From Acaryochloris marina S15 (GTDB lineage: Bacteria > Cyanobacteriota > Cyanobacteriia > Thermosynechococcales > Thermosynechococcaceae), in contig NZ_CP064923.1 of assembly GCF_018336915.1 (NCBI RefSeq), positions 5,550,001 to 5,582,000 on the forward strand: 32,000 nucleotides of DNA. The letters are read 5' to 3'. The notes below the pieces were generated by a model. The model did not search any database and was not told the origin of the DNA. It was given only the letters and a program-made list of their open reading frames with translations. Position 1 is the stretch's first letter. Each line of letters opens with the position of its first letter. The translations under genes and the position numbers were made by a program. Below, one piece after another: positions 2,582 through 25,847 of the stretch.

Positions 2582-3370
2582 TCAACTGGCGGCCTGATAC
2601 GGGCAAAATCCTTGTTTACCAAACCCACAATAGGACTCACAGCGTTTATTCTGCCCCGGACGTTGTTCGACCCACTCGCCTTTTTTATGGGTTGTCATCC
2701 AGTCCTGAGCTGTGGCTTCCGAGTGGCATACTTTGAGGGCTGATTGGCGGCCTTTTTTCATCACGGCATAGGTGGTTGGGGTTGCCCAACGTTCTTCCGG
2801 TGAGCACATTGAAGGTGGCGTATCACCTTGAGCCGCTTGGTGGAGCTGGATGCGATCTCGCATATAATCCAAAGACTCAGCCTCAGACCATAAGGGCACC
2901 TCAATCACTTCCACAGGTTTTAAGCCATCTCTTTCATGGCGTGGCCCCCAATCGCGAAGCAGGGCCACAATTTGCAGCTTCTTTATTGTTGAAAGATGGG
3001 GAATCCCTGAGCCATCAATGGCGTTTTCCAACAAAAATCGATAGACATTCAGCTGTCGATCCCATTCCACTTTGCCCTCGGTCTTGGCAGATTTCACGGC
3101 CCATGAACTGGTGAATTTGTAATCCTGCAACAGGCCATCAGCGGTCACCACCAAATCCATATGACCCGAAATCCGAAAGCCATCCACCTCAGCAATAGCC
3201 TCCGTTTCTACATGCTCTTCCTCTGCTGCAAACTCTTCCAAAATCGAATGCATCAGGGTGCCATACAGGGGCCACAGTCGTTCTGATATATCTTCTTCTA
3301 GCTGATCACTGTATTGACGTCTCAACCAGGCAATTAGCGGCGCATCGATCAACTGGGTACAAGATAGATC
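2582..3370 (-). pseudogene. Cas4-like PD-(D/E)XK nuclease with a C-terminal Cys cluster: main body, separated from its first 29 codons by an IS insertion
   Basis: Nuclease core motif GHMDLVV...LLQDYKFTS (D...D-x-K). Cysteines in MCSPEE and CESYCGFGKQGFCPY suggest a Cas4/AddB-type Fe-S cluster. The reading frame stays open up to 3370 (DLSCTQLIDAPL...), where it meets the IS end and an in-frame TAG (complement of 3371-3373). It continues in frame with 5142-5228 once the IS and one TSD copy are removed. Confidence 0.8.
3363..3370. repeat. Target-site duplication GATAGATC (left copy)
   Basis: The identical 8-mer lies in direct orientation at 5134-5141, immediately outside the IS terminal inverted repeats. 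Confidence 0.8.
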
Positions 3371-5133
3371 CTACATTCAGCAGGCTAGCTAGCAGAGCAG
3401 ATAATATTTTTTACAGCCCTTCCCAAGGAACGGCAAGATAAGTTGCTGCCTGCTGTTGAGCTTGATGAGATGCTTGGCACCATCAAGCCAAACTAAATGG
3501 ACGGCCTGAAAGCATTGGAGAATCCAACGTAACGTAGGTTTCATAGTTTGTTTCCCCTTCTGATTAGGGAGAGTTGTTTGTACTTGTTCTAGTGCATTTC
3601 TTAACTGTCGTTGTCCTAAGCTGTAGACCATCAAACACAAGGCCATGATCATGGCTAAGGCAGCGATACGCCGAGGTGTCTTCAGGAAAACACTAGAGGC
3701 AAAGAAGAGTGGATCTTTGATAAAGCGAAAGCCTCCTTCACACGCCTGCTGGTTCTTATACTCGCGCAGAATATCATCATTGCTCCATTGCTCTTGTTCC
3801 AAGAGATTGGTGGCTAAGATGAAACGACCTGCTTGCCGCCGATAGCGTTCGATGACTGGCTCATTGAGGGTTAAGGTAGCCTCAATAGAATAGGTGTAGT
3901 GAGTCACAACCGTTGCTTTTGTCGGTCGTCCAGCCTTTGAATAATGAGGTTTTTTGTGGATTTTGAGATCGTCAAGGGTGTGATACCTGAGGATTTTGCC
4001 AAAATCTTGGGCTGCAGCTAAAGCATCTGCAGGGCACAAGAAGGTCTGTTTGCAGAGGGTTTTAAGTGCAGTAGTTTTTTGGCTAAACGCCTGATCAATC
4101 CGCTTTTGCACTTGTTTGAGTCCAGAGTCTCTGCGAGCTTTACTTTCAACCACCAGCCACCGTTGTTGAATCTCTCCATAGGTACTACATACTTCGACAA
4201 AGCTATAGCCGTTGAGAGCACTGGGGTGAAACTGTGAACCCGGCAGCCCTTGTAATAAGTCTTGGGCTGCCGTTGAACTTGCTGGAACTCGGCTAATCCA
4301 AGATGTACTTCCTAATGCTTGCAGATTGTCGGCACTGTAGAGGGCACTATCAGCAACAATCACCTCTGGCTGTTGCTGACTCCACTGTTGCTTAAATTCA
4401 TGGATGATAGGCACAAACGTACTTTTGTCCGCATCATTACCGTTGCCCACTTGTAAAAATAAAGGAATACCCCCGTCCCCACTCACCAGTAGGTTCAATA
4501 CAAACTGCTTGAGATCACGACGATTGTCCCGTGAGTAGCCGTAGGTGATTTTCACGGGTATCGGCTCCTCTGATTCAGCCAGTGCAGGGGAGGGGGACTC
4601 AGGTGCAGAGGGGGATTCGTCTGACGCCTCAACCTGTGGTTTATCTAAGTATTGCCCCTCAACACTAAGGCTTGTCGCATCTAGATGCGCACACCTTAGA
4701 GCTACATCGAATTTCTGAACGACTGCCATTGCCACATGGATAAATATCTGGGTCACACCATAGGCATAGAGCTTGTCGAGGACTCGACCGATACGGGTAT
4801 CGTTGAGGTGCTCTGGCAGTACACCTTGACCGAGTAAGTGCTCGGTTGCTTTGCTTTCGAAAAACTCACTAAATAAGTACAATGGAGCACTCAAAAAGCC
4901 CATACCATTTAGAATCAGGGCTTTGACAACTTGACCACAACTAACATTCTCTTGCTCGTGAGTACCTAATAATCGATCCACTATTTCGACAATGCCGATC
5001 TCATCGACGATACCGGCAATAATACCGAGATGGTCAATATCCTGAACGTCTATCTCTTGAGGTGAATACATGGACTTGCGTTGAGAGACAACCTCAAAAT
5101 TATCCCTTGATGGTTAGTACCTGCTGAATGTCG
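3371..5133 (-). mobile_element. IS1634-family (IS4 superfamily) insertion sequence, ~1763 bp, apparently intact
   Basis: Terminal inverted repeats are CTACATTCAGCAGG (3371-3384) and the reverse complement of 5120-5133 (CGACATTCAGCAGG), matching 13/14. A subterminal GATAAT(A)TTTT match sits 16 nt further in at both ends. There is a single 560-aa transposase ORF and perfect 8-bp flanking direct repeats. Confidence 0.85.
3389..5071 (-). CDS. IS1634-family DDE transposase
   Basis: The 560-aa ORF has an N-terminus (IDHLGIIAGIVDEIGIVEIVD...GMGFLSAPLYLF) typical of the DUF4277 + DDE(IS4) architecture of IS1634-group transposases. It fills the space between the IRs. Confidence 0.85.
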   Translation of the reverse strand: MYSPQEIDVQDIDHLGIIAGIVDEIGIVEIVDRLLGTHEQENVSCGQVVKALILNGMGFLSAPLYLFSEFFESKATEHLLGQGVLPEHLNDTRIGRVLDKLYAYGVTQIFIHVAMAVVQKFDVALRCAHLDATSLSVEGQYLDKPQVEASDESPSAPESPSPALAESEEPIPVKITYGYSRDNRRDLKQFVLNLLVSGDGGIPLFLQVGNGNDADKSTFVPIIHEFKQQWSQQQPEVIVADSALYSADNLQALGSTSWISRVPASSTAAQDLLQGLPGSQFHPSALNGYSFVEVCSTYGEIQQRWLVVESKARRDSGLKQVQKRIDQAFSQKTTALKTLCKQTFLCPADALAAAQDFGKILRYHTLDDLKIHKKPHYSKAGRPTKATVVTHYTYSIEATLTLNEPVIERYRRQAGRFILATNLLEQEQWSNDDILREYKNQQACEGGFRFIKDPLFFASSVFLKTPRRIAALAMIMALCLMVYSLGQRQLRNALEQVQTTLPNQKGKQTMKPTLRWILQCFQAVHLVWLDGAKHLIKLNSRQQLILPFLGKGCKKYYLLC

Positions 5134-5354: not shown

Positions 5355-6173
5355 GTGATGACGATGAAAATTAGTGAACTGATTGAGTGGTTTGAAAGCT
5401 GGGCTAACCCGTCCTGGCAGGAGAAGTGGGATAACTGTGGTTGGCAGATTGAACCGGGGATTTTGGATCAACCGGCTCGGGTACTGGTCTGTTTAACGCC
5501 AACCTTAGCGGTGATGGAAGAAGCGATCGCACTTCAGCAGCAGAACACACCTATTAATTTAATTTTTGCCCATCATCCCTTAATTTTTGGCCCTCTGAAG
5601 TCAGTACAAAAGGGCGATTCCATTGGCGATATGGTTCGCCTCTCCATCACTCATCAGATTGGGGTTTACAGTGCCCATACCAATTTTGATCAAGTCGCAG
5701 ATGGCACAGCAGATGTATTGTCTCAACTCTTAGAGCTGCAAAATGCCGAACCCGTAGAACCAACCCAAGATGGCCTGGGATACGGTCGCGTCGGCAATCT
5801 TAAACCCGCTCTAACACTGCAACAGCTCCTCGCCAACATTCAAGCTACTCTGAAGCCTACCGATTTATTGGTATCACCCACAGCAGATCGACAGCAGTCT
5901 ATTGAACGGGTCGCAGTACTCGGAGGGTCTGGAGCTAGCTATATCTCAGCCGTGAGCCAAACAGGTGCCCAGGCATATCTGACTTCGGACTGTAAGTTTC
6001 ATCAATTTCAAGAGAGTCGCGATCGCAACCTGATTCTGATTGATGCTGGACATTATGCGACAGAGCGGCCTGCCTGTGAACGCTTAGCCCAAAAATTTAC
6101 CAACAAGGGAGTGGAATGGGCGCAACTGAGCCAGTCAGACGAAGATTTCCGCAATTTTTGGGCTGCCAACTAG
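5355..6173 (+). CDS. Nif3-like dinuclear metal centre protein (YbgI/GTP cyclohydrolase 1 type 2 homologue)
   Basis: Motifs LIFAHHPLIF, AHTNFD and IDAGHYATERP. The length (~270 aa) is typical. The start could be 5355, 5358 or 5364. Confidence 0.85.
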   Translation: MMTMKISELIEWFESWANPSWQEKWDNCGWQIEPGILDQPARVLVCLTPTLAVMEEAIALQQQNTPINLIFAHHPLIFGPLKSVQKGDSIGDMVRLSITHQIGVYSAHTNFDQVADGTADVLSQLLELQNAEPVEPTQDGLGYGRVGNLKPALTLQQLLANIQATLKPTDLLVSPTADRQQSIERVAVLGGSGASYISAVSQTGAQAYLTSDCKFHQFQESRDRNLILIDAGHYATERPACERLAQKFTNKGVEWAQLSQSDEDFRNFWAAN

Positions 6174-6206
6174 AAGGACCAACAATACAACTGCCACAGT
6201 TTTGAG

Positions 6207-6662
6207 ATGAAACAGGTTTGCCAAATTTATAGGCAACTCCCTACAAAACTCACCAACAGCATTGAGATAGTCGGTATCGTCATTGGGCTGTTGATGATGG
6301 TGATACTGGCAAACATAGCTGCAGATGGTTCGGTATTGGCCTTGATCATCTTGTCTCTCGTTACCCTGGCCCTTATCAGCGCTCAGCCTCTCCAGCATTG
6401 GCAGAAACGACGACATGCCCAAAAGCAGTACAAACTGCGTCAGAAAAGGGTTGATCAGCTACTGGCAGGACGATCCCGAGCAGACATTTTGAAGGCATCA
6501 CCTTTCAGTTATGGTCGTTGGCCCGATGGTGACGACACTTACGTAATTGATGATCGGAGGATAGGTAAGATTATTCACCAAGTCTGGAGTCCAGCAGAAG
6601 CAGAGTTATGGATCTTAGAGCAAACGTTACATGAAGAAGAAAACGGCGACGAAAGAAAATAA
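6207..6662 (+). CDS. Hypothetical membrane protein (two predicted TM helices + charged C-terminal domain)
   Basis: 151-aa ORF with the hydrophobic stretch IVGIVIGLLMMVILANIAADGSVLALIILSLVTLALISA followed by a basic region. It is preferred over the antisense ORF 6135-6422. No family was recognised. Confidence 0.5.
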   Translation: MKQVCQIYRQLPTKLTNSIEIVGIVIGLLMMVILANIAADGSVLALIILSLVTLALISAQPLQHWQKRRHAQKQYKLRQKRVDQLLAGRSRADILKASPFSYGRWPDGDDTYVIDDRRIGKIIHQVWSPAEAELWILEQTLHEEENGDERK

Positions 6663-6997
6663 GCACACCACGCCTATACAGTTGATTCAACGTTGCTAAT
6701 ACCAATAAGCATCAAAAAGTGTAATTTTGATTTGCTATGAAACTTTGCCAACAAAGGGTTTTACAAATTTTATGATTACGCTTTTAGGCTCAAATTGGTA
6801 TAACCTCAACCTTGATGGATTCAACCCTAGTTCCTTCAATTGGGCTATCACTGCCATACCGTCATCAGAGATAGGCTCAATCAACTTACCCATACATTCA
6901 AGTTTGTTGACCCCGCTTCTGAGCTAAGCTAGTAATGCTTATACACCGCTCGACGACATATATCGGTCGTCGTTTATTGATTTAAAGGAGACAGCAC

Positions 6998-8305
6998 GTG
7001 GTCAGGATTCTCCGGTTGTCAGAGATGACATCTGAAGAACTCGCTTCCATCAAACGACGGGCCGAGTTAGATATTGAACAGGCGCTAGCTGTCGCCAAAG
7101 AAGTCATTGACGAGATTCGCGCTGACGGTGATCAGGGCGTGATCAAATACGTCCGCAAATTTGATTTTCCCGGTGCCACAACCGAAAATCTGAAAGTGAC
7201 CGAAGCCGAATTTGCCGTTGCCCGCGAGCAAGTCGAGCCCGAAATCAAAGCCGCGATTGAGCAAGCCTATCGCAACATCAAAGAAGTGCACGAACGGCAA
7301 ATGCCAGAAGAAGTGCAGCTTGCCGAAATCGATGGCGGCGTCTTTGCTGGGGAAAAAGTCACCCCTATTGCCAGTGCTGGACTATATGTGCCTCGGGGTA
7401 AAGGCTCCTTTCCCTCAGTGATGCTGATGCTCAGCGTGCCAGCGGTCGTAGCCGGAGTGGAAAGAATTGTTGTCTGTACACCACCGGACAAAAACGGCAC
7501 CGTAGAGCCTGCCTCTCTTGTCGCAGCTGAACTGGCAGGCGTGAAAGATGTATACAAATTAGGCGGCATCCAAGCAATCGCAGGCATGGCGATCGGTACT
7601 GACACAGTACCCAAAGTCGATAAAATCACTGGACCTTGCAACGTCTATGGCTCCGCCGCCAAGCGCCTGCTCTACGGCACCGTTGATGTTGGCTTACCCG
7701 CTGGTCCTAGTGAATCGATTATTCTTACGGACGAAACCACTGACCCCCGGATTGCAGCCTTAGATCTGCTGGTAGAAGCAGAGCATGGTCCCGACTCGGC
7801 AGGCTTACTGGTTACCCACAGCGAAGACCTAGCCAAGGCCGCGTCCAAACATGCAGACGACTATATGCAGCAGTTGCCTGAATGGCGCAAAAACTTCTGT
7901 CAGAAGGGCCTGTCTTCTTATGGCGGTATTATTCTCACCTCCAGCCTGGAAGAATCGATTGATTTCCTCAACGATTATGCCCCTGAGCATTTAGAAGTTC
8001 TGGTACAAGACCCCCTCAGCGTTCTCGGCAAAATCAAGAATGCTGGTGAAATTCTCCTCGGTCCCTATACCCCCATTCCAACGGCCAACTACTGCATTGG
8101 CGTCAACGCCATTCTGCCTACGGGAGGCTTTGCTCGCTCCTACTCGGCGGTATCGGTATACGACTTTCTCAAGCGCACTGGCATTGGTTATTTAACAAAA
8201 GAAGGCTTTGATCGCTTGGGCCATACGGCTCAAACCTTGGCGGAGCATGAAGACTTCCCGGCCCATGCCATGGCCATTCGTGAGCGTAAGAACCTGCTCC
8301 CGTAA
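6998..8305 (+). CDS. hisD: Histidinol dehydrogenase
   Basis: Full-length 435-aa match to the HisD pattern (YVPRGKGSFPS, KITGPCNVY, EAEHGPDS, APEHLE). The GTG start is preceded by AAGGAG 7 nt upstream. Confidence 0.95.
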   Translation: MVRILRLSEMTSEELASIKRRAELDIEQALAVAKEVIDEIRADGDQGVIKYVRKFDFPGATTENLKVTEAEFAVAREQVEPEIKAAIEQAYRNIKEVHERQMPEEVQLAEIDGGVFAGEKVTPIASAGLYVPRGKGSFPSVMLMLSVPAVVAGVERIVVCTPPDKNGTVEPASLVAAELAGVKDVYKLGGIQAIAGMAIGTDTVPKVDKITGPCNVYGSAAKRLLYGTVDVGLPAGPSESIILTDETTDPRIAALDLLVEAEHGPDSAGLLVTHSEDLAKAASKHADDYMQQLPEWRKNFCQKGLSSYGGIILTSSLEESIDFLNDYAPEHLEVLVQDPLSVLGKIKNAGEILLGPYTPIPTANYCIGVNAILPTGGFARSYSAVSVYDFLKRTGIGYLTKEGFDRLGHTAQTLAEHEDFPAHAMAIRERKNLLP

Positions 8306-10928: not shown

Positions 10929-12356
10929 ATGGAAACGCAAACCGATTCCAATCCGAGCAACTTAGATATTCAATTCAATTTTTGGCAACAGTGGTATCCA
11001 GTCGCTCCCTTAGAAGACTTAGATCCACAGCGCCCCACTGCCATTACGTTATTAGGGCAACATTTTGTTATTTGGCAACCCAAGCATTCTGACCAATATC
11101 TAGTATTTCAAGATCTGTGCTCCCACCGCTTAGCTCCCCTCAGTGAAGGTCGCATTGACGAGCAAACCGGTCAGCTCATGTGTAGCTATCACGGTTGGCA
11201 ATTTGATCAAGAAGGTCTTTGCACCCACATTCCTCAAGCTGAAGCAGTCACCCCTAAGCAGGGACAGCTGTACTGCGTTACTGCTGTCCCCACTCAAGCG
11301 CAAAGTGGACTGTTGTGGGTATGGCCAGATCCAGACACCCGAGAAATTGCTGCCACACAACCTTTGCCTCTCTCCCCCCTCATTAATGCTGACCAAAACT
11401 TTGTCTGGTCCTCTGTCATGAGAGATTTGGCCTATGATTGGCAAACGTTAGTTGAAAACGTCTCTGACCCGAGTCACGTTCCCTTTGCCCATCATGGTGT
11501 CCAAGGCAATCGCAACCAAGCCGCTCCTATCCCTATGGAGGTTCTGACCTCCACCCCAGAGCTAATTGAAGTCTTGACCACGGGGAAGTTCGCCACCACA
11601 ATCACCTTTCAACCGCCCTGCCGCTTGGAATATCAATTTTCTATCGGTGAAGGGAAACAAGCAGCTATGGTCACCTACTGTATTCCCATTGCCCCAGGTC
11701 GATCTCGCATCGTAGCCCTGTTTGCACGCAATTTTGCCACAGGTCTCATGAAAGTGCTTCCTCGCTGGGTAGAGCATATGAAAAACCGCAATCCAGTGCT
11801 GGATGGCGACATGATTTTGTTACGTGCCCAAGAAAAACAGCTTCTTCAGCACACCCAAACCCAAAATTGGCAAACCGCCTACAAGCTCCCCACCAGTGCG
11901 GATCGTCTCGTGATTGAATATCGGCGATGGTTCGAAAAGTATAGTCACGGACAAATTCCTTGGGGATCTGCTGATGGGCAGATTTTCGTTGCTTCCAACA
12001 ACTATGACTATTTACAACCTCTAGGAGAGAAGCGACCTCAAATTCTGGATCGATATCATCAACACACCTTGATCTGTAGTAGCTGTCGACGAGCGTTGAG
12101 CAGAATCAAGCTATTGCAAAAGATTTTGGTAGCTGTCTTTGCGATCGCAATCAGTGGAACAGCAATCTTGCCTGATTCTTTACTCCCTTCCCGCCATAAG
12201 ATTGTGCATCTAAATATCATTGAAATTCTTATTTATCAAGAATCTGAATACCCAATCTTATGCTGGGATGGGAGTAAGAGTGACGTGGGGGATTCCCATG
12301 GTTCTCATAGGGCTTCTAGGGTTAGGGATCTATTATGGGTTGAAATATTGGCTTAA
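10929..12356 (+). CDS. PaO/Tic55-type Rieske [2Fe-2S] non-haem-iron oxygenase; the 3' end appears frame-disrupted
   Basis: Rieske motif CSHRLAPLSEG...CSYHGWQF, mononuclear iron region DPSHVPFAHHG and the PaO-family C-terminal CxxC (CSSCRRAL). After residue ~418 the translation becomes atypical (HKIVHLNIIEILIYQESEYPILCWDG...), while the +1 frame carries a TM helix and a ...KYWLKPRFYFVDYIHAHH tail. Confidence 0.85.
   Translation: METQTDSNPSNLDIQFNFWQQWYPVAPLEDLDPQRPTAITLLGQHFVIWQPKHSDQYLVFQDLCSHRLAPLSEGRIDEQTGQLMCSYHGWQFDQEGLCTHIPQAEAVTPKQGQLYCVTAVPTQAQSGLLWVWPDPDTREIAATQPLPLSPLINADQNFVWSSVMRDLAYDWQTLVENVSDPSHVPFAHHGVQGNRNQAAPIPMEVLTSTPELIEVLTTGKFATTITFQPPCRLEYQFSIGEGKQAAMVTYCIPIAPGRSRIVALFARNFATGLMKVLPRWVEHMKNRNPVLDGDMILLRAQEKQLLQHTQTQNWQTAYKLPTSADRLVIEYRRWFEKYSHGQIPWGSADGQIFVASNNYDYLQPLGEKRPQILDRYHQHTLICSSCRRALSRIKLLQKILVAVFAIAISGTAILPDSLLPSRHKIVHLNIIEILIYQESEYPILCWDGSKSDVGDSHGSHRASRVRDLLWVEILA
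12183..12274. repeat. AT-rich palindromic (MITE-like) element inside the 3' end of the Rieske gene
   Basis: Imperfect 22-nt inverted repeats: CTCCCTTCCCGCCATAAGATTG (12183-12204) against the reverse complement of 12253-12274 (CTCCCATCCCAGCATAAGATTG). They match 19/22, including a perfect 10-mer CATAAGATTG. An inner ATTCTT/AAGAAT pair is also present. The exact boundaries are uncertain. Confidence 0.55.
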
Positions 12357-12399
12357 ACCCAGATTTTATTTTGTGGATTATATCCATGCACATCACTGA
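12214..12399 (+). other. Displaced native C-terminal coding segment of the Rieske/PaO gene (+1 frame relative to 10929)
   Basis: Open frame reading ...AGMGVRVTWGIPMVLIGLLGLGIYYGLKYWLKPRFYFVDYIHAHH* (TGA at 12397-12399). It encodes a hydrophobic helix plus an aromatic tail, as expected for membrane-anchored PaO-family proteins. Confidence 0.6.
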
Positions 12400-13024
12400 T
12401 CAATCGATTTTTAGATAAAAGCCTTGGAAACACTCTGTCCATAAGTGTTTTCAAAGCTATTTTGTACAACGTTACACCAACCGTTAGAGTTCAGTGAACG
12501 ATAGAACCTGCCTACCCGTGAACTGAATTCCATCGACCTAACAACCAAAAGATACAGGTTTATGGCCAAGAGTTATTACCACAAAAAGTTTTACAAGATA
12601 AGAACCTTTATAGTTATTTCATTGATTCATATTAATTTATATGAAATATTACCGATTTCTTCGTGCAGATTTAATTTGGTAGTCTATTGACAACCAAATC
12701 TTCCAAAACTGGGTCTATTGTAACTTCCACAACATTTATGAGGAAGAAATTTCAGCCCTTTCATAAATATATTCTTTAGATTAAAATCTTGACTAAAATG
12801 CAGAGTATTGCGAATGAGATCGCACGATCAGCTCAGCTGCCATAACGGGGATCAAATTCTTACAATCTTTACAAGGAAAAGCTTACAAGGATTATTATCG
12901 GTATTACAATTTATATGTAAAGAACTGTATTGAGTCCTAGCTATGTAAACCATGAGTATTAAGTATTTTTTCTTAGCCTGTTTGAGCTGAGTGGAAGGAT
13001 ATACTTCTAGAACAGAAACGCTTG

Positions 13025-14002: not shown

Positions 14003-14635
14003 CTAGGCAGTCGGTTCAGTGCCCTGCCAACGCTGAAGTGGCACACAATCTATCCCGAGTTGATCTAAAGCTCGAGCTACCACAAAGTCTGCCAAGTCTT
14101 CGATGGTTTGGGGGTTGTGGTACCAAGCAGGAATCGCAGGCACAATCCGGGCTCCAGCCTCTGCCAAAGTAGTCAGATTTCGCAGGTGAATCAGGCTAAA
14201 GGGGGTTTCTCTAGGCACGATCACTAAAGGGCGTCGTTCCTTCAGGTGAACATCGGCCGTCCGTTCTAATAGGCTAGAACTGAGACCCGCAGCAATTTTA
14301 GCCACCGTACTCATACTGCAAGGAATCACCAGCATCCCCAGGGTGCGAAAGGAGCCGCTGGCAATCCCTGCACCGACGTTAGTGGCGGCATGGCAGGTTA
14401 ACTTCCCACCCCATTCATCGGCTTGCTGACGCCAAAATTGCTCTTGCTTACCGGGATCAGCGGGCATACGAATATTTTGCTCGGCTTGCCAAACCTGGTA
14501 AGTGGCCTTAGAAGCCACCAGTTCAATCGAATAATTTGCTCGGAGCAAGAACTTAATCGTGCGTACAGCATAGAGTAATCCTGATGCACCAGAAACGCCT
14601 AAAGTAACGGGTAGCGGTGAGTTAGAGTGAGACAC
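14003..14635 (-). CDS. ubiX: Flavin prenyltransferase UbiX
   Basis: GVSGASG nucleotide-binding start, PCSMSTVAKIAAG and KERRPLVIVPRETP motifs over 210 aa. Confidence 0.9.
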   Translation of the reverse strand: MSHSNSPLPVTLGVSGASGLLYAVRTIKFLLRANYSIELVASKATYQVWQAEQNIRMPADPGKQEQFWRQQADEWGGKLTCHAATNVGAGIASGSFRTLGMLVIPCSMSTVAKIAAGLSSSLLERTADVHLKERRPLVIVPRETPFSLIHLRNLTTLAEAGARIVPAIPAWYHNPQTIEDLADFVVARALDQLGIDCVPLQRWQGTEPTA

Positions 14636-15686: not shown

Positions 15687-19037
<3,351 letters not shown>

Positions 19038-19546: not shown

Positions 19547-19827
19547 AGTCTCGCTACAGGAATGAATTGAAAAACGGCCCAGTGCTCTCGTACCATACTA
19601 TGACGGCACCTCTGACAGAAAGAGTCGTTGGGCTGCAAAGACATCCTTTTGGGAGGGAAGAACCATCGATCGTCCACCCTCCATAACCGTTACACCAGCC
19701 TAGGTCACTCTTTAGGATTGGAACAGGTTCCCAGGGTCACCGTCTAAACAATCAACACGTTATGCCCAAAAAGCATACCTACTCAGTTCCCCTACAGTTA
19801 CTGTTATTGTTTTTCAAATCACAACTT

Positions 19828-20334
19828 ATGCAAAAATTTCTGCTTTTTTCATCCATACTTCTAGCCCCTTTAGCAGCTACCCCAGTGCTGCATGCTCAGG
19901 AAACGGTTTCTCACCTTCCCCTTCCCTATGCTCAACCCTTAGTCATCGCTCAAGACGCAGTAAAAGCCGACCCCTTCTTTTTGACCCGTGCCAAGAATCT
20001 GGCACGGCAAGCAGCCGAACGAGAAAACGGTGGCCTTAGTCAGTACCGGGCTGAAACATCGATGTATGGCCCTGCCATCGATTCCCCTCATGTCGAGAAT
20101 GAAGATGGCAGTGTCACCTTCTCCTTCAAAGGGGGTGCTCCTGGGTTTGTTTCCCCGACTCTAGAAACAGTAGCCACCGTTGCTCCTGCAGGCATCGTTA
20201 CGATCGGTTACAACGGTCCCATTCGTCCCGCAGCCGCTCAGCCCTCCGAGCCTGACCCTACCCCGGCAGCCCCAGCTTCCATTCCCCAGGTTCCATCTCA
20301 AATTATTGACCAAATCAAAGATTTAGTTGAATAG
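19828..20334 (+). CDS. Secreted hypothetical protein with one copy of an unassigned ~87-aa domain
   Basis: The internal ATG at 19828 gives the signal-peptide-like N-terminus MQKFLLFSSILLAPLAATPVLHAQ. The domain DPFFLTRAKNLARQAAERENGGL...GGAPGFV...YNGPIRP spans 19969-20229. Confidence 0.7.
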   Translation: MQKFLLFSSILLAPLAATPVLHAQETVSHLPLPYAQPLVIAQDAVKADPFFLTRAKNLARQAAERENGGLSQYRAETSMYGPAIDSPHVENEDGSVTFSFKGGAPGFVSPTLETVATVAPAGIVTIGYNGPIRPAAAQPSEPDPTPAAPASIPQVPSQIIDQIKDLVE

Positions 20335-20503
20335 ACGCCTTATCCATCGGATCTAGCGAAAGAACGCAGAACAACGCGTTTCTATCACCAGCCATCTGAA
20401 TTCATCGCCCCCACAGATAGGCATCCCAGACGATAGCCTATGGGTGTTTTCTGCCTTTACTATGGGCAGATGGTTTTGTTTATCTCTCTTTAGGGTTGTG
20501 TCT

Positions 20504-21484
20504 ATGCGCCAGTTTGTTGCTTTTTCAAAGGTTTTATTGCTTCCCCTTTGTTTGGGAATAGGGCAGGTAGCGGTCTATGCCCAATCCTTACCCTCCGTCA
20601 CTCCTCCTCCTCAAGCCACAGATCCCTTTTTCCTGACCCGGGCAAAGAACCTAGCCAGACAAGCAGCCGAACGACAAAATGGGGGTCTCAGACTTTATCG
20701 TGCAGAAGCTGCCATGTATGGGCCTGCCATAGATGCGCCCAGTCAACAGAATTCCGACGGCAGCGTCACCTTTACCTTCAAAGGCGGAGCACCTGGCTTC
20801 GTCACGCCCACAGTAGAGACTATCGCGACCGTTACCCCCCAAGGATTAGTCAGTCTCCAATACAACGGTCCTTTACGCTCTGTTGCCCTTGCCAAGGTCA
20901 AGCCCACCCCCTCTCAAACTCAAGAGCCAACACAACCCCTTAATCAATCGACCAACTCCTTAGAAAAGCCTGTTTTAATCCCTAGCTCCCAACCCTTACT
21001 GCCTAATTCATCTCCACCCTTACCCGCTCAGCCAAAGGCACCAAGCACTCGCCCTCCCAGCTCTGGCCTACCCACTCTACAGCCAGCACCCGTCATCCCC
21101 CCCAGGCAAACATTGCCACCTATCGCGACACAGCCAACACCTGCTATTACCCCCCAGAGCACTCCCAGCCGCCCAGTTCAGACCTCACCAGCATCTATCC
21201 AAAACACATCTATCCAAAACGCTGATTTCTTTCTCTCTCGCGCCAAAAACTTGGCTAGGCAAGCCGCTATCAACGCTAACGGGGGTTTAGCCCAGTATCG
21301 ACCTGAAACTTCAATGTTTGGTCCTGCTGCTGGCACCCCACATCAAAAAAATCAAGATGGCAGTATCACCTTTAGATTCCAAGGAGGAGTCCCTGGCTAT
21401 CGCAATCCCACTGTAGAATCTGTGGTCACAGTGACCCAAAATAGCACTGTCACTGTTACGTATAATGGCCCCATTCGACCATAG
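20504..21484 (+). CDS. Secreted hypothetical protein with two copies of the same ~87-aa domain separated by a Pro/Ser/Gln-rich linker
   Basis: The ATG at 20504 gives the signal peptide MRQFVAFSKVLLLPLCLGIGQVAVYAQ. Domain copies lie at 20621-20881 and 21224-21481. The linker at 20882-21220 is ~30% proline. Confidence 0.7.
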   Translation: MRQFVAFSKVLLLPLCLGIGQVAVYAQSLPSVTPPPQATDPFFLTRAKNLARQAAERQNGGLRLYRAEAAMYGPAIDAPSQQNSDGSVTFTFKGGAPGFVTPTVETIATVTPQGLVSLQYNGPLRSVALAKVKPTPSQTQEPTQPLNQSTNSLEKPVLIPSSQPLLPNSSPPLPAQPKAPSTRPPSSGLPTLQPAPVIPPRQTLPPIATQPTPAITPQSTPSRPVQTSPASIQNTSIQNADFFLSRAKNLARQAAINANGGLAQYRPETSMFGPAAGTPHQKNQDGSITFRFQGGVPGYRNPTVESVVTVTQNSTVTVTYNGPIRP

Positions 21485-21609
21485 GCGCTGCCATTCTGAC
21501 AAACCTAGGGCAAGCAGCTGCACAAACATCAGCAACGGGGTAAGTTCTCCTAGTAAATGGGTAAACTAGGACATATCAGACAAAAAATTTATTGTTAAGG
21601 ATAAGTAGC

Positions 21610-22056
21610 ATGGGTTTGAGCTTCAAGCACTGGAGTGGGGGTATAGCACTAGCCACCTTGATTCTGACAGGGAATGGCGTTGCACTAGCTCAAGAAGTTG
21701 ATCCTCTCGATCGGCCATTACGTCAACCCACCATATCTGAAACGCTGGATCGGCAGTCCAACCTCGATAGTTACTGGGAAGATGAGTCCCTCGGAGGGGA
21801 TGCTAAGTTTCTTTTCAGTGTGGGTACACCAGAAGGAGCCATTCGAAGCGCTGCTGAGCGTGTTGAAGTGATCTACAAAGATTTACTACAGCAGCAAGAT
21901 GATGATTTCCCCACCGTTCGCACCCGCGATTTAGCCAATCCTTACGCAACATCATTGCTAGAACTGCAAAGCCTATCAGGCATTGGGAACTCTGAACCCG
22001 AGTCTACTCCCCAATATATTCCTGCTGTAGCCCCTGCTGTTCCTGCGCTTTGGTAG
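21610..22056 (+). CDS. Secreted hypothetical protein
   Basis: The ATG at 21610 gives MGLSFKHWSGGIALATLILTGNGVALAQ, which is signal-peptide-like. The mature part is acidic. No family was recognised. Confidence 0.55.
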   Translation: MGLSFKHWSGGIALATLILTGNGVALAQEVDPLDRPLRQPTISETLDRQSNLDSYWEDESLGGDAKFLFSVGTPEGAIRSAAERVEVIYKDLLQQQDDDFPTVRTRDLANPYATSLLELQSLSGIGNSEPESTPQYIPAVAPAVPALW

Positions 22057-22089
22057 AAAGTAAAGCCAAACTAATTCTCAAAATCCAGA

Positions 22090-22138
22090 ATAGCTAAAGC
22101 GCCCAACTTGCATCTCACAAGTTGGGCGCTTTAGCTAT
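22090..22138. other. Perfect 21-bp stem / 7-nt loop hairpin between a convergent CDS and the tRNA
   Basis: ATAGCTAAAGCGCCCAACTTG (22090-22110), loop CATCTCA, then CAAGTTGGGCGCTTTAGCTAT (22118-22138). It sits 33 nt after the 21610-22056 stop and 9 nt beyond the tRNA 3' end. No canonical U-tract follows on either strand. Confidence 0.7.
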
Positions 22139-22147
22139 TGAAATCAA

Positions 22148-25250: not shown

Positions 25251-25847
25251 TTAGATTCCACCCGCTGGCATACCGCCATGACTCCGCGGATCGTCTTGAT
25301 TCCCCCTGACTGCAGGTTGGAATATAGATGTTTGACCCATTGCTTTCGACGTTGGCAAAGTATCCTCAGCAACTAGCGCAGCTAAATTATCTGCCAAAAT
25401 CTGTCGAGGCTGTTGTCCCACTGAGCTCGCTAAGGCTTCACCGCTACCATCCAGATACACAAAATGGGGAATGCCATCAACGTCAAATTTGAGCACTTCA
25501 GGCAGCCACTTGCTGTTGTCAACGTTCAACATCACAAAATTAACTTGATCAGAAAATTCTTGCTTGAGGCTGTGCATATCATCAGCCATGGCCTGACAAC
25601 TCGTACACCAATTCGCATAGAACTCCATCAAGGTGGGTTTTTGATTCGTTAATGCGATTTCTATGGGGGTTGAATCAGCTGCTAGAGCTGATAAGGAAGG
25701 TTGTTCAGTTTGCTGGCGAGAACCGAAAAAGAGAGCGATACTGAGTGCGATCGCAACCATAGCAACCAAAAAATTTCTTAATCGTTGACTGGTCGTTGCT
25801 GTATCAGCCTCAGGATTGGACGGCATATCTGATGGATCTAAAGTCAT
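25251..25847 (-). CDS. txlA: Thioredoxin-like membrane-anchored protein (TxlA-type thiol:disulfide interchange)
   Basis: WCTSC redox motif in [15 protein letters not shown], one N-terminal TM helix ([16 protein letters not shown]) and a thioredoxin fold. The start is ambiguous (ATG at 25847, 25874 or 25880), and the far-upstream track start at 25958 is unlikely. Confidence 0.75.

Follow-up and report, generated by a model that had tools for sequence, protein, structure and literature searches.

How does a gene for a Rieske oxygenase come to carry its C-terminal end in a different reading frame from the rest of the protein? This question is raised by a locus in the 32-kb stretch of DNA analyzed here (the window), the host of which belongs to the Acaryochloris marina complex. 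Among named strains, 'Moss Beach' carries the closest relative of the gene. The original prediction, made from the letters of this DNA, was that a MITE-like element had been inserted into the gene and had either pseudogenised it or remodelled its C-terminus, with a sequencing or assembly frameshift and a recoding RNA structure as alternatives.

The main open reading frame (10929-12356) encodes a protein of 475 amino acids with significant matches to the Pfam domains Rieske (PF00355, E = 2.3e-22) and PaO (PF08417, E = 2.6e-24), in agreement with the predicted PaO-type Rieske oxygenase that extends through the CxxC motif and a first hydrophobic helix. All of these features are located in codons 1-418 (10929-12182, plus strand), which also include the mononuclear-iron motif and are 98% identical to the intact homologue P0001. 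The mononuclear-iron motif, ENVSDPSHVPFAHH, was read directly from the translation. The Rieske motif of the window reads CSHR...CSYH, with a Ser in place of the usual Pro. This P65S exchange affects the C-P-H part of the motif, in which Pro is found in 127 of 129 full-length homologues.

Downstream of codon 418, the frame continues into a tail (LPSRHKIV...WVEILA, 12183-12356, plus strand) of 57 new residues and a stop codon. About 30 of these codons are derived from the inserted element, and the remainder come from translation of the original 3′ end in the wrong frame. The native 3′ end itself is found in the +1 frame at 12277-12399 (plus strand) as 40 codons (RVTWGIPMVLIGLLGLGIYYGLKYWLKPRFYFVDYIHAHH) and a stop codon, within an open reading frame (12220-12399) that contains ...AGMGVRVTWGIPMVLIGLLGLGIYYGLKYWLKPRFYFVDYIHAHH before its stop. 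It encodes a second membrane helix and a conserved aromatic tail, and orthologues align to this +1 tail and not to that of the main frame, as had been anticipated. The aromatic-xxDY motif at the C-terminus is present in 123 of the 129 full-length homologues, and CxxC in all of them. The read-through tail shows no second hydrophobic peak, and no protein sharing words with it was found in a collection of 5.8 billion proteins; an exact-product look-up likewise found no record of the 475-aa protein in other assemblies.

Removal of 94 nt, that is, of the 92-nt element and one TA, restores a protein of 458 amino acids with the junction ...AILPDSLRVTWG... and the C-terminus PDSLRVTWGIPMV...FYFVDYIHAHH, which agrees with the orthologues. 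This repaired protein is identical to the intact 458-aa P0001 at 448 of 458 positions, including the junction PDSLRVTWG. The claim that excision restores the gene and its reading frame thus holds, while the length (∼91 nt) and the junction (PDSL-VRVTWG) originally given for it had to be corrected. Because 94 is 1 mod 3, translation crosses the element and enters the former 3′ end in the wrong frame. An uninterrupted open frame for the native tail persists, and it differs by three nucleotides from the allele of the 98%-identical relative L004. Judged from these comparisons, the gene is by descent a member of the PaO/LLS1-type family, with a predicted present product that retains the catalytic domains, CxxC, and helix 1, and from which helix 2 and the FYFVDY tail are missing.

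The inserted element occupies 12183-12274 (no strand assigned). It is a non-coding, AT-rich, and hairpin-forming sequence of 92 nt, CTCCCTTCCCGCCATAAGATTG...CAATCTTATGCTGGGATGGGAG, with the ends CTCCC...GGGAG. Its terminal inverted repeats were found as originally described, at 12183-12204 (plus strand) and 12253-12274 (minus strand) with 19 of 22 positions matching, and the three mismatches between the arms recur unchanged in a second copy (see below). A repeat search of the window extended the arms to 30 nt with 83% complementarity (12180-12209 and 12248-12277). The 25-nt arm, allowing up to three mismatches, occurs at two sites in the window and at no others, and matched in none of 100 shuffled sequences. 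The predicted hairpin has a folding energy of -38.5 kcal/mol (z = -3.6), which was equalled by none of 200 shuffles. The GC content of the element is 38%, compared with 47% for the window. At 92 nt, the element falls far below the length of a transposase gene and has no coding capacity for one. A 37-nt inverted match between 12119-12155 and 25740-25776 was also considered as a possible paralogue; it was dismissed as a chance likeness of hydrophobic stretches sharing GCGATCGC, and the second stretch is part of an unrelated 235-aa open reading frame.

Comparison with the empty site in L004 (...GATTCTTTAAGAGTG...) defines the insertion precisely. The filled site of the window reads ...GATTCTT-TA-(92 nt)-TA-AGAGTG..., and the empty site ...GATTCTT-TA-AGAGTG.... 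Based on the one TA in L004, the two copies of the target-site duplication in the window (again without assigned strand) are located at 12181-12182 and 12275-12276. The empty sites of L034 and L036 also carry a single TA, and none of the three shows a footprint. The insert is likewise missing from L043, which carries the MBIC11017-type allele, and from all other orthologues recovered, which span 98% to 61% identity and extend to other genera. The site is therefore polymorphic, filled in the window and empty at the same position in the relatives examined. Since the TA duplication is perfect and pS relative to the empty-site relative is 0.02, we infer that the insertion was recent.

A second copy of the element was identified in Acaryochloris sp. 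IP29b_bin.137 (L003, 3952-4043), where it is intergenic, flanked by TA, and identical to the window copy at 85 of 92 positions (92%). Hence, the palindrome is neither unique to this locus nor conserved in position, two possibilities that had been named as arguments against a mobile element. With one copy in each of two genomes, these are the two copies of the exact MITE that we found: GTDB species-representative genomes contained none beyond that in L003, a scan of metagenomes gave no copy, and a blastn search of the PLSDB plasmids with the element gave no match. A search for copies inside called open reading frames, using the 45-aa peptide encoded by the MITE, also found nothing. Two further small TA-flanked elements (L012, 201 nt; L026, ∼95 nt) share the same terminus. 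The terminal-repeat pattern gave 29 matches in metagenomes, most of which lack a preceding TA and seem unrelated.

The ends of the element connect it to ISAcma32, an IS630-family insertion sequence of the same host species complex, which is found on plasmid pREB3 of A. marina MBIC11017 (NC_009928.1) and in MBIC10699. Its right end, as reverse complement, is CTCCCTTCCCGCCATAAGATTATGG; the left arm of the MITE matches the first 21 nt of this sequence and 23 of its first 25 nt, so that the terminus CTCCCTTCCCGCCATAAGATT is identical in both elements over 21 nt. The pREB3 copy of ISAcma32 is also TA-flanked and is annotated with an IS630-like transposase. It differs from the MITE in its size of 1161 bp and in its two-ORF (frameshifted) transposase with HTH and DDE parts, in contrast to 92 bp without coding capacity. 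Moreover, both arms of the MITE resemble the right end of the insertion sequence and not its left end. Beyond the terminal 21-23 nt the interiors are unrelated, and the MITE is therefore no simple deletion derivative of ISAcma32. In two metagenome loci (L011 and L016), the same terminus adjoins fragments of IS630 transposases (Pfam DDE_3 and HTH_33; NCBIfam IS630). No copy of ISAcma32 is present within the 32-kb window.

Taken together, the termini identical to those of ISAcma32, the TA flanks, and the second copy identify the element as an IS630-type MITE. We therefore regard the insertion of a 92-nt MITE of the IS630/Tc1-mariner type at a TA in the Rieske oxygenase gene as the explanation of this locus, with a probability of about 0.88. 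This bears out the MITE-like insertion of the original prediction, now that an empty site with a single TA in a near-identical relative and ends matching an IS630-family element are at hand. By this reading, a transposase of the ISAcma32 type, supplied in trans, would act on the terminal repeats of the MITE, which would then jump into the TA dinucleotide at codons 418-419 of the 458-codon PaO-family gene. Reading would run through the open element and give the 475-aa product with its foreign tail of 57 residues. The shared terminal repeats suggest that an ISAcma32-like transposase acting in trans probably moved the element. IS630 elements are transcribed, and insertion sequences highly active, in A. 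marina CCMEE 5410 (PMC8763236). As a side observation, the insertion is clean and datable: both its filled and its empty site are available, along with a candidate source of transposase.

In kind, the element is ordinary. It shares small size, terminal inverted repeats, TA duplication, hairpin potential, presence/absence polymorphism, and insertion into genes with the MITEs derived from IS630/Tc1-mariner elements in other bacteria, including cyanobacteria. The classical MITE families differ in having tens to hundreds of copies, compared with the two copies in two genomes found here. All of the shared features just listed are also those of plant Stowaway MITEs, and their terminus CTCCCTCCGT likewise starts with CTCCC, a mere resemblance. 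A search of the accessible literature found no description of MITEs in Acaryochloris, so that such an element has apparently gone unreported there for this genus.

Could the frameshift be absent from the organism altogether? As a general possibility, a sequencing or assembly artefact would fit the fact that the exact 475-aa product is on record in no other assembly. A discrete block of 94 nt with inverted ends of 22-30 nt and a perfect TA duplication is nevertheless unlike an indel error, and this block has a homologue in another genome, while its ends are related to those of a real insertion sequence; we consider an artefact very improbable. Still less credence can be given to recoding, in which the hairpin would cause ribosomes to shift frame or to bypass the 94 nt, with continued production of the native C-terminus. 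The stability of the hairpin and the survival of the native tail as an open frame with three nucleotide changes would be in keeping with this. However, the insert is missing from every other orthologue examined and thus is no conserved feature of the gene, and the same element occupies an intergenic site in L003. Furthermore, the would-be take-off codon TTA is not followed by a stop and has no matching landing codon (junction GAG TAA GAG), and an Rfam scan of 11900-12700 revealed no family, with a chance match to mir-5470 at 19.9 bits versus a gathering score of 98. The element could also be ancestral at this site and have been excised precisely from the relatives, as is possible for cut-and-paste elements. 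This would require many precise excisions instead of one insertion, given that all recovered orthologues from 98% to 61% identity, other genera included, are without the insert, and the empty sites show a single clean TA without footprint; a history of this kind is hardly to be expected.

More weight is due to the question of what the insertion did to the protein. The C-terminus may have been remodelled without loss of function, leaving a working one-helix oxygenase with a new 57-residue tail and an insertion that is neutral or adaptive. In favor of this explanation, everything from the Rieske to the CxxC part and helix 1 stays in frame, the reading frame used runs open through the element without an immediate stop, and no additional frameshift or stop is found upstream of it. 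We nevertheless consider it unlikely: the segment that was lost, helix 2 and FYFVDY, is the one retained in 123 of 129 homologues, nothing related to the new tail was found among 5.8 billion proteins, the near-invariant Pro of the Rieske motif is replaced by Ser, and outright null alleles in close relatives (see below) indicate that loss is tolerated. The replacement of the second helix and aromatic tail by 57 unrelated residues agrees with the pseudogenised or C-terminally remodelled gene that had been proposed, and of the two outcomes we favor the former: the allele of the window is probably a loss-of-function or strongly impaired one. The annotated 475-aa product is an artefact of the insertion and a warning for annotation.

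Two further lesions were identified in automatically generated Logan assemblies of close relatives, which belong to the runs SRR17348481, SRR17348486, and SRR17348487. In L047, a CAA>TAA exchange converts codon 50 into a stop (Q50*), and L034 and L035, the contigs of which are not identical to each other, both carry a GAA>TAA exchange (E94*) plus a deletion of 87 nt. Because these are two further independent null alleles, the gene looks dispensable in this shallow clade. Among the orthologues compared, pN/pS was 0.17-0.19 when stop codons were skipped and the insert of the window was removed, from which we infer long-term purifying selection on the gene. Two observations that could have indicated relaxed selection or decay of the window allele were rejected as evidence, namely its pN/pS of 0.47 versus a pooled value of 0.13 and an excess of window-specific substitutions (14 versus 4) in a relative-rate count. 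A cluster of substitutions at 11945-11995 agrees with the MBIC11017 allele and therefore looks like recombination. Similar asymmetries are found in flanking 1-kb bins, and several neighboring genes show similar ratios, on tiny counts.

The identity of the target gene follows from comparison with A. marina MBIC11017. ABW27904.1 falls into the cluster of P0001 (90% identity), and the repaired protein of the window is identical to ABW27904.1 at 407 of 458 positions (89%). We assigned this accession to AM1_2905 by calibrating accessions against the locus tags of neighbors (ABW27900.1 is AM1_2901, ABW27905.1 is AM1_2906, and ABW27909.1 corresponds approximately to AM1_2910). Gene order is common to L043 and the window, with identical synteny of hisD, a phosphotransferase gene, a GNAT gene, the oxygenase gene, and genes encoding DUF4079 and GFA proteins. 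Like AM1_2905 and other oxygenases of the PaO/LLS1/Tic55 type, the protein combines Rieske and PaO domains with a D-x2-H-x4-H iron motif and a C-terminal CxxC. The window allele differs from AM1_2905 in the foreign tail that takes the place of the second membrane helix and FYFVDY, and in the Ser of its C-P-H motif. By sequence and gene order, the interrupted gene is thus the orthologue of AM1_2905.

This assignment makes the target gene matter more than the mobile element, which is routine as another small IS630-type MITE in a genus with very active insertion sequences. Among 23 oxygenase candidates for chlorophyll d synthase, AM1_2905 is the sole one in the "unique core", that is, the only candidate that all A. 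marina genomes contain and the outgroups lack (Miller et al. 2022, PMC8949462). A paper of late 2025 still described the chlorophyll d-producing enzyme of Acaryochloris as unknown (PMC12629889). The breakage of the gene in the strain of the window and in three other assemblies means that "core" status hides non-functional alleles. In the A. marina strains described, chlorophyll d is made at normal levels, a normal Chl d:Chl a ratio corresponding to more than 90% Chl d, and genetics is difficult in this organism. The lesions differ from each other, with the MITE in the window, Q50* in one relative, and E94* plus the 87-nt deletion in two relatives. On balance, we lean slightly toward the view that the orthologue of AM1_2905 has been inactivated on three or more separate occasions, that normal chlorophyll d in these strains would remove AM1_2905 from the candidates, and that the recurrence would point to relaxed or even positive selection for loss of the gene. 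The alleles would represent natural knock-outs, and the candidate could be tested, with no need for genetics, by measuring pigments in existing cultures.

Both reading frames of the original prediction are present. The main-frame ORF (10929-12356) encodes 475 amino acids in which Pfam recognises a Rieske (E 2.3e-22) and a PaO (E 2.6e-24) domain, and the displaced C-terminus lies in a +1-frame ORF that ends at 12399 and includes ...VRVTWGIPMVLIGLLGLGIYYGLKYWLKPRFYFVDYIHAHH followed by the stop. The AT-rich insert with inverted repeats was likewise recovered. A repeat search returned two inverted arms of 30 nt (12180-12209 and 12248-12277) that are 83% complementary, and a 25-nt arm with up to three mismatches occurs at these two sites only in the 32-kb window (matched by 0 of 100 shuffles). 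A long hairpin is predicted for this stretch (-38.5 kcal/mol, z = -3.6; none of 200 shuffles was as stable), and the GC content of the element is 38% compared with 47% for the window. The ends read TA-CTCCC...GGGAG-TA, placing 92 nt (12183-12274) between two TA dinucleotides.

Excising the element together with one TA yields a 458-aa protein with the C-terminus ...AILPDSLRVTWGIPMVLIG...FYFVDYIHAHH. The gene is thus restored as foreseen, but by removal of 94 nt (1 mod 3) and not of ~91 nt. Among 5.8 billion proteins, we found P0001, which is exactly 458 aa long, 98% identical, and carries the same junction, PDSLRVTWG, as the repaired product. Farther orthologues (81-61% identity) share this architecture, and alignment of both frames to the orthologues identified the FYFVDY-type end as the native C-terminus. 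The locus encoding P0001 (L004, Logan assembly, SRR12447963) can be aligned with the window base by base up to the insert on either side. Its sequence is ...CCTGATTCTT-TA-AGAGTGACG..., with a single TA in place of the two TAs and the 92 nt between them in the window, and the site is also empty in three more relatives. The window and L004 are a textbook filled-/empty-site pair with TA target duplication. Together with ends common with ISAcma32, an IS630-family insertion sequence of A. marina, this bears out the suggested MITE-like insertion.

Two alternatives raised at the outset, a sequencing or assembly frameshift and an RNA structure that promotes recoding, fared less well. Neither the structure of the insert nor its homologues are compatible with a sequencing artefact. 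Recoding or ribosomal bypass of the insert is not supported, as the insert is missing from every other orthologue examined, the junction has neither a stop codon nor a matched codon pair, and an Rfam scan gave no family match. An ancestral element that was precisely excised in the relatives would be unparsimonious in view of the clean single-TA sites in all of them.

The insertion leaves residues 1-418 of the product native, and with them the Rieske and PaO domains, the iron motif ENVSDPSHVPFAHH, CxxC, and helix 1. The residues that follow (419-475) are new: ~30 codons stem from the element and the others from the former 3' end, now translated in the wrong frame. With the 40 lost residues, the gene product is deprived of its second hydrophobic peak and its aromatic tail, so that the read-through product has one hydrophobic peak only. 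In 129 full-length homologues, the CxxC motif is present in all and the aromatic tail motif in 123. Because this conserved C-terminal module is gone, we infer that function of the window allele would be lost or strongly impaired; a functional remodelled protein with the new tail seems unlikely to us. Codon 65 (11121-11123) has also changed from Pro to Ser in the C-P-H Rieske ligand motif, a position that is Pro in 127 of 129 homologues, and among close relatives only the window allele carries Ser.

Relative to L004, pN/pS is 0.47 for the window gene and 0.13 for the pooled neighboring genes. Window-specific substitutions number 14 versus 4 for L004, compared with 50 versus 48 in the flanking 10 kb, where single 1-kb bins are equally asymmetric. 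A cluster of 8-9 changes at 11945-11995, which sets the window apart from the closest relatives, matches the allele of A. marina MBIC11017 (KYSHGQIPWGSADGQI; SHGQIPWGSADGQI). It is therefore most likely a short recombined stretch within the gene, close upstream of the insertion, and the figures above do not amount to evidence of relaxed selection on the window allele.

Divergence from the 98%-identical L004 is very patchy across the window (~5355-8305, 14003-14635, and 18153-19037), which looks like recombination tracts. Synonymous divergence is 0.26 for hisD, 0.16 for the NIF3-like gene, 0.14 for the flavoprotein gene, 0.07 for ROK, and 0.00-0.04 for other genes; 6161-6877 gave no megablast alignment to L004. 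A 1755-bp IS1634-family insertion sequence (3371-5125; 560-aa transposase, NF033559, E 8e-117) has 14-nt inverted ends and lies between 8-bp GATAGATC direct repeats (3363-3370 and 5126-5133), a target duplication. It is missing from L004 and interrupts a PD-(D/E)XK-domain gene whose uninterrupted counterpart in that relative encodes 281 aa. A 251-nt segment is present three times in 19969-21471 (61-70% identical, spaced by 600-650 nt), within hypothetical ORFs 19762-20334 and 20444-21484; the copies could represent paralogous domains or genes in tandem. A perfect 22-nt inverted repeat with a 7-nt loop (22089-22139), just after ORF 21592-22056, looks like a terminator.

A second complete copy of the MITE came to light in Acaryochloris sp. 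IP29b_bin.137 (L003, 3952-4043) when a single genome from each bacterial species was scanned for the terminal pattern. This copy, likewise flanked by TA, agrees with the window copy at 85/92 positions and is intergenic, downstream of a LysR-type ORF. The same three arm-to-arm differences occur in both copies and are therefore family features and not decay. Several cyanobacterial metagenome contigs contain the 21-24-nt terminus, preceded by TA every time; in two of them (L016 and L011) it directly adjoins transposase fragments (Pfam DDE_3 and HTH_33; NCBIfam IS630). Small TA-flanked elements with a CTCCC(T/A)TCCCGCCATAAGATTACCTA terminus were found in two further such contigs (L012, 2570-2770, 201 nt; L026, ~2000-2098, ~95 nt). 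Their interiors are unrelated despite the common terminus, and this group of IS630 ends seems to serve several MITE lineages. On Brasilonema pBOCT2 (L042, 763-2224) and in L011 (~1010-1270), IS630 relatives with a terminus of this kind have ~260 extra non-coding nt that separate the transposase stop codon from the outer terminal repeat. An inner repeat-like sequence adjoins the stop codon in L011, and the extra segment could represent a small element, either nested or adjacent.

A tblastn search of plasmids with one metagenome transposase fragment recovered ISAcma32, annotated as IS630-like, on A. marina MBIC11017 pREB3 and an MBIC10699 plasmid. The reverse complement of its right end, CTCCCTTCCCGCCATAAGATTATGG, equals the MITE left arm over the first 21 nt and over 23 of the first 25. 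The pREB3 copy is TA-flanked like the MITE but measures 1161 bp versus 92 nt, and no similarity was found between the interiors. These comparisons support a MITE with ISAcma32-type ends, which an ISAcma32-type transposase would mobilise in trans. A. marina has many IS elements, IS630 members among them, and they are transcribed (PMC8763236).

The family looks low-copy in the collections covered, where MITE families commonly have many copies: the window copy and the L003 copy from the species-level scan are the only two of this element, no exact copy was found in plasmids or metagenomes (the latter held related termini only), and the MITE-encoded peptide is absent from all called proteins searched. 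Its small size, lack of coding capacity, terminal inverted repeats, TA duplication, and insertion polymorphism, together with ends that also occur on an autonomous IS of the same host, all fit an IS630/Tc1-mariner-type MITE. The element is thus one more MITE of known type and not a new kind.

The P0001 cluster contains 458-aa proteins from A. marina MBIC11017 (ABW27904.1), CCMEE 5410, 'Moss Beach' (the nearest named protein, 447/458), and NIES-2412. Locus tags were calibrated by exact look-ups of neighboring genes in the MBIC11017-type contig L043: ABW27900.1 is AM1_2901, ABW27905.1 is AM1_2906, and ABW27909.1 clusters with a same-length entry labelled AM1_2910. ABW27904.1 is therefore AM1_2905. 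The window and L043 share the gene order hisD, phosphotransferase, GNAT, oxygenase gene, DUF4079, GFA, flavoprotein, VanZ.

Other disrupted alleles of the AM1_2905 orthologue, in close relatives, were read from automatic assemblies. Two non-identical contigs, L034 (SRR17348487, ~1230-1460) and L035 (SRR17348486, ~150-385), share GAA>TAA at residue 94 (E94*) and an 87-nt in-frame deletion; assembly error is less likely for this lesion because two different assemblies have it in common. A third contig, L047 (SRR17348481, ~2720-3030), has CAA>TAA at residue 50 (Q50*). Including the MITE allele, the sequences indicate three recent disruptions that arose independently within a shallow clade. For the deeper A. 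marina radiation, pN/pS is 0.17-0.19, so the gene has long been a working gene. Among 23 oxygenase candidates for the chlorophyll d synthase, Miller et al. 2022 (PMC8949462) highlighted AM1_2905 as the sole member of the A. marina 'unique core', which is present in every A. marina genome and absent from the outgroups. The Chl d synthase was still called unknown in November 2025 (PMC12629889). The main value of the insertion lies in the gene it hit: it provides a natural insertion allele of a published candidate gene for chlorophyll d, to which the relatives add nonsense alleles.
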